Origin: Acaryochloris marina MBIC11017
Lineage (GTDB): Bacteria > Cyanobacteriota > Cyanobacteriia > Thermosynechococcales > Thermosynechococcaceae
DNA length: 32,000 nucleotides
Direction of reading: 5' to 3'
NCBI RefSeq assembly: GCF_000018105.1
Contig: NC_009925.1
Location: 630,001 to 662,000, forward strand
Within the stretch, counting starts at the first letter, position 1. Each line of letters begins with the position of its first letter. Positions 14,241 through 21,872 of the stretch are shown here, in pieces. A model generated the notes under the pieces. That model made no database searches. It was given only the letters and a program-made list of their open reading frames with translations, and was not told where the DNA came from. The position numbers and the translations under genes were made by a program.

Positions 14241-15080
14241 TCAAAGTACAGCAGAACTTTTATCTCTGACCCGATCATAGAATTCTTCCATAACGGCTAG
14301 GAAGGATTGCTCCTTTGGCCAAAAGGCTGGAAAGTCGCCTTGGGTTTTAACCAAAATCCCAGAGACTCCCGTCGAGGGTGGGGCATTAATGGTTTGGGGA
14401 AGTCGTTTGTCTCCTTGCCAAAAGTCTTTGAGCTGTTCGATCTCGGATGCGGGGGTGGTGAGGGGCTGGGTGTAATAGCTGGTGTCTGGTTCCAGCTCTG
14501 TTTGCTGGGCAGTGAGTTCAGCGGATAATGCTTGACCGAGGGGGGATTTCGCGAGTTCCTTTTGTAAGTTTTCCCGAGACAGACCTCGTAGCTCAAACAG
14601 CAAAAATGGGTCTTGGTCCAGCTCTGCAGCTAATAGGTAATAGACGCCAGCAATATGTTTGCAGGGATTGCTCCAGTCGGGACAAGAACATTGAGTCTTG
14701 AAATTTGTATTGCTACGGGGTAGCAGGTTTAAATCCAGCTTGGCAAAGGCATCTTCGATATTGTCAGGCATTTCGTTTAGCATCAGCCGTGAGATCAGAC
14801 TGGCTTTGGATGCGATAAATGCGATCGCAGCTGCCCAATTGGCTTTGCTAATCGGCTCAAACTCAATGCTGGTTTCATACAAAGGCTCTTTATAAACCCC
14901 AAAATAAGGATTCACCGAGCCGCGAACTTCAGCTTTCACCAACCCATCTTTAAGAGTAAAACTTTTGACTTTATTCCCCCGAGCATAGGATCGTCCTCGC
15001 CCCAAACGCCCTGGATCGGTAATTTGCTCAATTGCTGTAAGGAACCGTTGTCCCCACCAGGTTCGACTGAAGTTAGCCAT
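14241..15080 (-). CDS. SWIM zinc-finger family protein (SNF2-partner type)
   Basis: 279 aa with the SWIM signature CSCPDWSNPCKH (CxC-x(n)-CxH). The N-terminal WWGQRF...GRL.RGR.YAR segment is typical of bacterial SWIM proteins found beside SNF2 helicases. Confidence 0.85.
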   Translation of the reverse strand: MANFSRTWWGQRFLTAIEQITDPGRLGRGRSYARGNKVKSFTLKDGLVKAEVRGSVNPYFGVYKEPLYETSIEFEPISKANWAAAIAFIASKASLISRLMLNEMPDNIEDAFAKLDLNLLPRSNTNFKTQCSCPDWSNPCKHIAGVYYLLAAELDQDPFLLFELRGLSRENLQKELAKSPLGQALSAELTAQQTELEPDTSYYTQPLTTPASEIEQLKDFWQGDKRLPQTINAPPSTGVSGILVKTQGDFPAFWPKEQSFLAVMEEFYDRVRDKSSAVL

Positions 15081-15657
15081 TGGTGATTATTCCTCTAAAT
15101 ACGTCCTGGGCCGTTAGTTCTAGCTCAGGGAATAATTCATCACTCAGAATGCGGTTCTCTCGATAGGTAATGGGTAATTGTTCAGGCATAAACACCGTAA
15201 TCGTTTTTGCCTTGGGATCTACGATCCAGACTCTGGATATGCCTGAACTTAAATAGTCTGTTGCCTTTTCCGCCATACCGCCGAAGGATTGATCCGGTGA
15301 GATGACTTCGATTGCCAATTCGGGGGGGACAAGGCAGGGACCATCATCATCTCCCATACTAGAGAGACGTTCATTGGAGATATAGAGCAAATCAGGAACG
15401 GGGACCCAAGGTTTGCCCTCTCGGGATAGGATAACCGCCCATTCAATACCCACTTCTCCTCGATCTTGTGCCCACTGTCGGAGCAATACGTATAACTCAC
15501 CTGAAGTCCGAGAGTGGAAACGTTGTGGAGACATTTTAGGAATCGCTTCTCCATCAATGAGTTCACAGGCCGTTTCACCCTCAGGAAGAGAGAGAAACTC
15601 ATCTAGGGTTAGTTTTCGCGTGACAGCCGGGGTCATGATTTGCTTCGCCTTGGGCAA
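15073..15657 (-). CDS. Uma2-family (DUF820) PD-(D/E)xK putative endonuclease
   Basis: 194 aa. LTLDEFLSLPEGE..ELIDGE, PDLLYI and PELAIEVISP match the Uma2 restriction-endonuclease-like fold core. Its stop overlaps the SWIM start codon (ATGGCTAA, 8 nt). Confidence 0.8.
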   Translation of the reverse strand: MPKAKQIMTPAVTRKLTLDEFLSLPEGETACELIDGEAIPKMSPQRFHSRTSGELYVLLRQWAQDRGEVGIEWAVILSREGKPWVPVPDLLYISNERLSSMGDDDGPCLVPPELAIEVISPDQSFGGMAEKATDYLSSGISRVWIVDPKAKTITVFMPEQLPITYRENRILSDELFPELELTAQDVFRGIITNG

Positions 15658-21600: not shown

Positions 21601-21872
21601 GATAGTTCTAGGGAGGGGAGTGGCGCTTGATCCGTGCTGGGCAGCAAGAAATGGCGTGAATCAATCAGTTGTTCTAGGGGGCGACCGGGTTTTACACCTA
21701 GCTCATTGCTGAGGAAGTCTTCTAAGTCATCCCTGACTAACTGATAGGGATGAATGGAACGGCCCGTTTTGCGTTTCTTTTTTGGTTCTGTTGTTTCCAC
21801 CCAAAGATAGAAAGCGCCTGATTGTATAAATGTAGCTTCGTCAGGAATCCAGGTTCCGTGGATGATCTTCAT
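18690..21872 (-). CDS. SNF2-family DNA-dependent ATPase/helicase with bacterial SNF2-associated N-terminal region
   Basis: 1060 aa with an intact motif set: [87 protein letters not shown]. The roughly 570-aa N-terminal region (IHGTWIP..FYLW) is typical of the SWIM-partnered bacterial subgroup. Confidence 0.93.
   Translation of the reverse strand: [1060 protein letters not shown]

Follow-up and report, generated by a model that had tools for sequence, protein, structure and literature searches.

A stretch of 32,000 nucleotides from Acaryochloris marina MBIC11017 (contig NC_009925.1, positions 630,001 to 662,000; hereafter the window) encodes a SNF2-family ATPase, a SWIM zinc-finger protein and a Uma2-family endonuclease on one strand. 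An earlier reading made from the letters of the DNA (the sequence-only reading) had proposed that these genes form a helicase-nuclease conflict module. Comparison with orthologous loci shows that SNF2 and SWIM are a conserved pair that forms a functional unit. It also shows that the window Uma2 is an intact gene under selection for a predicted nuclease, whose family is enriched beside the pair but polyphyletic and optional there. The reading that we favour, and hold to be probable with some reserve, is a housekeeping SNF2–SWIM machine with an autonomous Uma2 gene riding in its operon. The elements concerned are listed below; numbers with the letter L designate the loci compared.

21872..18690, minus strand: SNF2-family ATPase, 1060 amino acids (aa), with the Pfam domains DUF3670 (residues 400-540), SNF2-rel_dom (586-867) and Helicase_C (883-997)
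15080..14241, minus strand: stand-alone SWIM zinc-finger protein, 279 aa (Pfam PF04434, E=1.3e-5)
15636..15073, minus strand: Uma2-family PD-(D/E)xK endonuclease, 187 aa (Pfam PF05685, E=2e-31)
15073..15080, minus strand: 8-nucleotide (nt) overlap between the Uma2 stop codon (15073-15075) and the SWIM ATG (15080-15078)

The five genes named by the sequence-only reading, which are these three together with an oxygenase and a protease described further below, were all found with their domains in the list of open reading frames (ORFs) and by Pfam. Coordinates and Pfam also agree with its layout, in which a motif-intact SNF2 is followed by SWIM on the same strand 3.6 kb away, and the Uma2 gene is joined to the SWIM gene by a start/stop overlap.

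The SNF2–SWIM pair

The SNF2 protein begins with a variable region, which is followed by DUF3670 (PF12419, E=3e-41), SNF2-rel_dom (E=4e-80) and Helicase_C (E=6e-23). Helicase motifs I, II, III and VI are intact and readable in the translation. Among solved structures, the SsoRad54-like core 1z63 comes nearest (E=1e-146), and the identity to Acaryochloris relatives is 92-94%. The best NCBIfam matches were both below the equivalog cut-off, with scores of 669 versus 1200 for the SCO1167 family and 266 versus 550 for the sll1366 family. The cyanobacterial SNF2 family is named 'sll1366 family intein-prone helicase' in NCBIfam. No intein was found in the window copy. Split tblastn matches of SNF2 occurred in some loci (e.g. 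L047 and L080), which inteins or fragmentation might explain.

The SWIM protein scored 25.1 bits against PF04434 (cut-off 19.6). Its CxC...CxH ligands, C131, C133, C140 and H142, are invariant among 30 homologs. The AlphaFold2 model is confident for residues 10-190. When this model was compared with the PDB by Foldseek, no significant match was obtained (best E ~0.1, with a weak match to ZSWIM8 at E=0.4), and a search of the PDB with the sequence gave no match.

Eighty SWIM loci were retrieved, and SNF2 orthologs were looked for in each of them. Both genes were present and adjacent in 63 of the 80, so that their co-occurrence is not a matter of chance. The other 17 loci were mostly contigs that end early; in four of them, SNF2 was lacking although 4 kb or more lay upstream. 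The order was SNF2→SWIM on one strand in 60 of the 63 adjacent pairs and SWIM→SNF2 in three (L010, L027 and L040, with a gap of 13-15 bp). The two genes were separated by 4-60 bp in about 46 of the 63. SWIM is 65-73% identical over its full length, which is constant at about 279 aa, across cyanobacterial orders including Gloeobacterales. Its nearest match, from Acaryochloris, is 97% identical, and a SWIM relative is encoded in at least 582 species-representative genomes. Within Acaryochloris, the ratio of nonsynonymous to synonymous substitution rates (dN/dS) of SNF2 and SWIM is 0.04-0.06, which indicates strong purifying selection.

The two proteins also exist as one chain. The PHROG family phrog_29996 is a fused SWIM–DUF3670–SNF2 protein with a profile of 1189 positions. 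SWIM residues 1-168 correspond to positions 1-168 of this profile (E=2e-28), and SNF2 residues 379-1054 correspond to positions 533-1186 (E=1e-162), which is the top PHROG match of SNF2. A fused 946-aa gene ('SNF2/RAD54 family helicase', L166 7001-9841) was found in a Wolbachia WO-associated record marked UNVERIFIED. Gene fusion and conserved adjacency together show SNF2 and SWIM to work as one unit. The sequence-only reading had stated that SWIM proteins of this type normally adjoin SNF2 proteins or are fused to them; this is what the loci and the fused proteins show, and the split in the window is thus unusual. It had named ywqA/ywqB of B. subtilis as an example; that YwqA is an SNF2 protein agrees with the literature (PMC7385302, PMC12448304).

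Bacterial SNF2 and SWIM pairs of this kind are known (the sll1366 family, the YwqA type and SCO1167/SCO6262). They have in common with the window the combination of DUF3670, SNF2 and Helicase_C with a stand-alone CxC...CxH SWIM protein. Unlike in these pairs, the window genes lie 3.6 kb apart and are probably not co-transcribed, with an oxygenase gene, the Uma2 gene and a variable cassette between them. YwqA of B. subtilis, a little-characterised Swi2/Snf2 ATPase, is an interactor of RNA polymerase and appears in the literature as the counterpart of RapA (PMC7385302, PMC12448304). Synechocystis Sll1366, a 'putative SNF2 helicase', co-sediments with large complexes among RNA-metabolism factors, and has also been treated as a putative Rad54-like homolog. 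E. coli RapA (HepA) is a bacterial SNF2 ATPase of the housekeeping kind, as the window protein would be, and its role is the recycling of RNA polymerase. The PDB matches listed for the window SNF2 did not include RapA. To our knowledge, RapA has neither a SWIM partner nor a DUF3670 domain.

In the reading that we favour, a Rad54-like double-stranded DNA translocase (DUF3670 plus SNF2) and the stand-alone SWIM protein would constitute a core, vertically inherited two-gene machine. SNF2 would provide the ATP-driven motor, and SWIM would serve as an adaptor for targeting or partner binding. The pair would most likely remodel or recycle protein-DNA complexes, for example stalled RNA polymerase.

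Uma2 genes beside the pair

The window Uma2 scored 109.4 bits against its Pfam profile (cut-off 27), and the match covers positions 1-171 of 172. The catalytic core PD...E-x-x-S...K is kept as VPDLLY, ELAIEVISP and AEKATDY in the window, in L081, in L083 and in distant orthologs. The dN/dS of 0.11-0.31 indicates purifying selection, yet it is 2-6 times more relaxed than that of the neighbour genes. The protein also matches the PADLOC candidate model PDC-S03. Because the orthologs are 185-187 aa long, the real start is probably the ATG at 15636 (187 aa), and the TTG at 15657 is less likely. The 8-nt overlap with SWIM is a probable signature of translational coupling.

Uma2/COG4636 (DUF820) has been described as a predicted PD-(D/E)xK 'likely solo toxin' that is abundant in cyanobacteria (Makarova et al. 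2009, PMC2701414), and its copy number is 4 to 17 within Thermosynechococcus (PMC9403480). Uma2 genes have been noted in type III CRISPR loci of Microcystis (PMC11855584), near type V-A loci (PMC9067536) and beside dnd clusters (PMC6435447). The window Uma2 resembles the solo toxin in its full-length Pfam match, its conserved core, its many paralogs and its position as a lone small gene among unrelated genes. It differs in that it is not in a paralog cassette, overlaps the start of a conserved host gene and is one of several Uma2 lineages with a statistical enrichment next to a single gene pair.

Orthologs of the window Uma2 with 55-68% identity were located in the cas operons of two genomes, whereas those of Scytonema and one metagenome-assembled genome lie between housekeeping genes. 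The cas operons are of type I, and the orthologs there (55-61%) are wedged between cas5 and a cas4-cas1 fusion gene, with one copy in Kamptonema formosum (L084 8001-8558). In Trichothermofontia sichuanensis (L086 7385-8579), two tandem Uma2 orthologs lie between cas5 and cas4-cas1. The window gene is similar to these CRISPR-cas accessory genes in being one small gene inside a conserved operon. In contrast, the window has no cas genes and no CRISPR array, and the host operon is that of SNF2 and SWIM. When distant metagenomic Uma2 relatives were inspected (mostly 27-33% identical, from non-cyanobacterial samples), SWIM or SNF2 was nearby in none of 73 loci.

Uma2 genes were counted around the orthologous pairs. 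With a local hidden Markov model, they occupied 20 of 176 slots touching or inside the pair versus 9 of about 770 slots at rank 2 or beyond (Fisher p=2e-9), and their frequency falls with distance from the pair. With curated Pfam annotation, Uma2 was the commonest family among the immediate neighbours (18/150) and was found twice in 150 positions at ranks 4-6 (p=3e-4). At the level of lineages (37 lineages at 85% SWIM identity), 8 adjacent and 8 distal Uma2 events were obtained, where the adjacent slots make up 19% of all slots (binomial p=0.004). This binomial test on lineage events replaced a per-lineage sign test, which had few informative lineages and gave p ~0.3-0.4. Measured against more distant slots as the baseline, the enrichment is therefore about 10-fold when raw counts are taken and about 5-fold when lineages are counted. 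Any conserved pair is, however, flanked by synteny breakpoints, at which small mobile or addiction-type genes may gather whatever the pair does. A linked nuclease is thus more frequent than expected, in accordance with the sequence-only reading. Judged from these neighbourhoods, the linkage of Uma2 to the pair is real but optional.

About 70-75% of the pairs have no adjacent Uma2. Where Uma2 genes do lie beside the pair, they can be sorted into four or more groups, with 14-28% identity between groups, and their orientation is divergent, convergent or co-directional. With this identity, a single dedicated 'pair-associated' Uma2 clade was rejected. The partner can also be exchanged between close relatives. 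L001 has a SWIM gene that is 97% identical to that of the window and the same downstream flank, yet a different Uma2 paralog stands at the junction on the opposite strand. The DNA of the window and L001 is about 96% identical through SWIM, and the synteny ends about 10 bp upstream of the SWIM ATG. The divergent paralog of L001 is found upstream of SWIM in L002, L004 and L014 as well.

A long-form Uma2 ('Z'), of a lineage unrelated to the window type ('X'), is present at the junction in L003, L018, L029, L035, L048 and L060. The members of this group that lie between SNF2 and SWIM are the closest ones (Halomicronema 86%, Leptolyngbya NK1-12 76%), and members at 57-62% identity lie elsewhere in housekeeping contexts. 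Some junction copies are decayed, with a frameshift in L035 and a fragment in L018.

Other small genes were found at the same junction, namely DUF29 in five loci (L023, L029, L035, L048 and L080), HepT/MNT pairs in three (L019, L026 and L043) and PIN in two (L032 and L073). The Halomicronema junction (L161 2859-6621) is a mini-island of PIN, DUF29, an MNT-type nucleotidyltransferase and Uma2. In Acaryochloris sp. CRU_2_0 (L002 1481-8361), three Uma2 genes lie within 7 kb on both sides of SWIM. Leptolyngbya NK1-12 (L162 1888-6618) has one Uma2 upstream of SNF2 and one between SNF2 and SWIM.

Uma2 is probably independent of the pair, because most pairs lack it, at least four lineages are involved, it is swapped between loci with 97% identical SWIM, and its orthologs occur elsewhere. 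The use of the same junction by other toxin-antitoxin-type genes and the decay of some Uma2 copies point in the same direction. The helicase-nuclease conflict module of the sequence-only reading is thus retained in part: SNF2 and SWIM are a true pair and the Uma2 linkage is enriched, but the fraction of pairs without Uma2 and the number of Uma2 lineages do not agree with a conserved, dedicated three-part system.

The gene pair and the Uma2 family are each already known. In the literature searched, the recurrent lodging of Uma2, DUF29 and toxin-antitoxin genes at SNF2–SWIM, including a co-diverging SNF2–Uma2–SWIM operon, was not found described. Small nuclease and toxin genes have landed repeatedly at the SNF2|SWIM junction, and Uma2 is enriched there about 5-10 fold. 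SNF2/SWIM and Uma2 are both very widespread in cyanobacteria, and neither has a demonstrated function.

Partner, passenger or defence nuclease

In the favoured reading, Uma2 would be an autonomous member of a family much expanded in cyanobacteria and would be kept by selection in its own right. Uma2-family genes would lodge repeatedly by conserved DNA-transaction operons, such as SNF2–SWIM and cas, and use the expression of the host operon. Uma2 would not be an obligate third subunit of a defence system.

Several points weigh against this reading. The identity of the Z-type Uma2 (74-86%) tracks that of SWIM (73-91%) in five genomes, across a sequence divergence of about 25%, which indicates a probable long vertical co-inheritance or retention inside the operon. 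The X and Z types both overlap or abut the SWIM start codon. Some genomes have Uma2 on both sides of SNF2 or SWIM (L162 and L002). A purely random hitch-hiker would not be expected to give a 5-10 fold enrichment at the slots touching the pair. Finally, the housekeeping role of the pair, which we take as the most likely one, is drawn from analogy with YwqA and RapA.

The alternative that survives best, and that we consider rather unlikely, is a facultative partnership. Here some cyanobacterial lineages would have recruited Uma2 to serve the SNF2–SWIM translocase as a non-obligate effector or accessory nuclease. During repair or genome conflict, DNA found or remodelled by the motor would be cut by Uma2; different Uma2 lineages would have been recruited independently, and any of them would suffice. 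The enrichment beside the pair in raw counts and at lineage level, the co-divergence of Z with SWIM and the contact of X and Z with the SWIM start codon all fit a partnership. It is also consistent with convergent recruitment from at least four Uma2 lineages and with the purifying selection on Uma2 and its intact catalytic core. The occurrence of Uma2 in cas operons (PMC11855584, PMC9067536) and beside dnd clusters (PMC6435447) would place it with other DNA-tracking machines. However, most pairs do without an adjacent Uma2, and Uma2 often points away from or towards the pair, in orientations (divergent or convergent) that preclude co-transcription. The junction also gathers DUF29, HepT/MNT, PIN and HicAB, which suggests a general sink for addiction-type genes, and the flanks of any conserved pair may gather such genes anyway as synteny breakpoints. 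The more distant X and Z orthologs are in housekeeping contexts.

A wider form of this idea, which we regard as slightly less probable still, is that Uma2 proteins are interchangeable accessory effectors recruited by DNA-tracking machines, so that SNF2–SWIM and Uma2 would be a facultative translocase-nuclease system for conflict or repair. If true, it would have its parallel in the Uma2 genes that lie beside dnd clusters and within cas operons of types I, III and V. It would, moreover, offer a first functional handle on bacterial SNF2/SWIM and Uma2, families that have been uncharacterised for about 20 years. The Uma2–SWIM overlap of Acaryochloris and the co-diverging SNF2–Uma2–SWIM operon of Leptolyngbya NK1-12 and Halomicronema are systems in which partner, parasite and toxin could be told apart.

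The model of the sequence-only reading, a dedicated anti-phage or anti-plasmid system of the three components SNF2, SWIM and Uma2, appears improbable. Translocase, adaptor and PD-(D/E)xK nuclease are all present with intact genes, and a nuclease is linked more often than expected. Uma2 also has matches in PADLOC, to the candidate models PDC-S03 and PDC-S17, and the slot by SNF2 carries toxin-antitoxin or other variable cargo. On the opposite side, the pair is a near-universal core element with about 70% identity phylum-wide and a dN/dS of about 0.05. Defence genes are usually patchy and fast-evolving. The core distribution, the tight coupling and the fusion of SNF2 and SWIM argue for a core role, as far as gene comparison can tell, and against defence. 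In addition, the Uma2 partner differs even between strains with 97% identical SWIM, and the three genes are not one operon in the window.

The surroundings of the orthologous pairs may likewise count against a defence system. Their Pfam neighbours are mostly housekeeping genes, aside from Uma2 and a few toxin-antitoxin genes. PADLOC gave more matches near the pair than in the control, and almost all of this excess comes from the Uma2-type candidate models PDC-S03 and PDC-S17. Near the pair, PDC-S17 can only be Uma2, because Uma2 is the sole family with at least 10 members there. The other PADLOC matches were a few toxin-antitoxin, restriction endonuclease and TnpB genes, in the near and control sets alike. 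When the Uma2 models were set aside, the defence families near the pair showed no clear excess over the control.

The sequence-only reading had also seen in the three genes the component logic of Hachiman, DISARM and Zorya, and this kinship was not sustained. The PADLOC matches of SNF2 to DpdE, ZorD and DrmD cover the generic ATPase core only (residues ~550-1035). Its NCBIfam scores are far below the cut-offs, with 318 versus 1500 for ZorD, 93 versus 950 for DrmD and 42 versus 500 for DpdE. Among the window ORFs, no ZorA/B/C, no DrmA/B/C or methyltransferase, no HamA and no dpd partner genes are present, and PADLOC gave no Ham match for the five proteins. ZorD of Zorya, DrmD of DISARM and DpdE of Dpd share with the window protein a generic SNF2 ATPase core, to which 8qy7 ('DEAD/DEAH box helicase') can also be aligned. 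Unlike them, the window SNF2 lacks both a fused Mrr-like nuclease and partners of the Zor, Drm or Dpd kind, and it is a conserved, vertically inherited core gene. Neighbourhoods of helicase plus nuclease should not be named defence systems from component logic alone.

We find it equally hard to credit that Uma2 genes are homing-type selfish elements, that is, free-standing site-specific endonuclease genes that favour the conserved SNF2|SWIM junction as inteins do. Such elements would explain the sharp cassette swap between near-identical strains, with its breakpoint about 10 bp before the SWIM ATG, and the insertion exactly between tightly packed conserved genes, here and at cas5 | cas4-cas1. 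The family is multi-copy with variable copy number (PMC9403480), and the 'intein-prone' name of the SNF2 family suggests that homing elements are attracted. Against this, the divergence of the Z type follows SWIM as in vertical inheritance, unlike recent horizontal spread, positions and orientations differ between lineages, and neither target-site repeats nor pairs of empty and filled sites were demonstrated. We know of no site-specific cleavage by any Uma2 protein.

The split in Acaryochloris and the rest of the window

Three further elements lie between SNF2 and the Uma2–SWIM genes.

17207..15741, minus strand: RPE65-family apocarotenoid/carotenoid cleavage oxygenase (ACO), 488 aa (Pfam RPE65, E=9e-145)
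17752..18546, plus strand: trypsin-like serine protease, 264 aa (Pfam Trypsin_2, E=3e-6)
17284..18582: strain-specific AT-rich cassette; blastn homology to L081 breaks off at 18583 and is regained at 17283

The distance from the SNF2 stop to the SWIM start is 3609 bp, and the convergent protease gene lies within it. The order SNF2 – slot – ACO – Uma2 – SWIM is common to the window, L081 (Acaryochloris sp. CCMEE 5410), L082 and L083, and the flanks are shared too. The 8-nt Uma2/SWIM overlap is kept in L081, L082 and L083. ACO is at the matching position in these three loci and is absent from the other 80 SWIM loci; as it is confined to the Acaryochloris clade, the oxygenase was rejected as a member of a module. 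The slot 3' of SNF2 differs by strain, with hicA/hicB in L081 and L082, PAP_fibrillin in L083 and the AT-rich protease cassette in the window. Since the slot content varies in this way, the protease was rejected as a module member as well. Its gene is missing from the equivalent slot in L081 and L083.

The AT-rich islet with a protease on the opposite strand, to which the sequence-only reading had drawn attention, is confirmed by composition (GC content of 0.32-0.38 around the protease versus about 0.47 in the surroundings) and by the Trypsin_2 match. Because of its low GC content, the protease looks horizontally acquired. Further matches of the protein are to phrog_7688, a phage family (E=4e-27), and to the PADLOC candidate PDC-S45 (E=1e-10), with a weak one to the protease domain of RT-Protease_XI. 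The protease ORF lies between the two copies of a 14-nt direct repeat (17732-17745 / 18582-18595), the right copy of which is at the homology boundary; short two-copy repeats such as this pair are often chance matches.

Comparison of these loci shows the 3.6-kb split to be a derived, Acaryochloris-specific arrangement with a hypervariable cassette slot. In the literature searched, this split architecture was not found described. In the A. marina clade, an ancestral tight operon would have been split by the ACO gene, the Uma2 gene and the cassette slot. SNF2 is probably no longer co-transcribed with SWIM, because a convergent gene follows it, and would now be transcribed apart. SWIM would probably be on an ACO–Uma2–SWIM transcript, coupled to Uma2 via the overlap. 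A scan of 14000-22300 for consensus promoters and terminators gave counts not above those of shuffled sequence and is uninformative on the operon structure. An Rfam scan of 13000-23200 gave no match.

The rest of the window is housekeeping, with plsX, fabH, EamA, ccmK3/4, parts of ABC transporters, DnaJ-TPR and an M50 protease. A second low-GC stretch (0.38-0.43) at 7500-9000 contains tRNA-Leu (8686-8769) and a 201-aa ORF (7999-8604), which matched neither Pfam nor PHROG. A type I restriction R subunit, HsdR (HSDR_N, ResIII and EcoEI_R_C, with an N-terminal DUF4145), is encoded at 28202-31621 on the minus strand, and no hsdM or hsdS is visible beside it up to the window end. The block from SNF2 to SWIM is bracketed by an ABC transporter ATPase (13237-14196, plus strand) and by a small ORF with an ABC permease (22030-23033, plus strand). 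The block may have been inserted into a transporter operon or inverted within it. This flanking layout, with the ABC genes 8 kb apart on one strand, is identical in L081 and L083.

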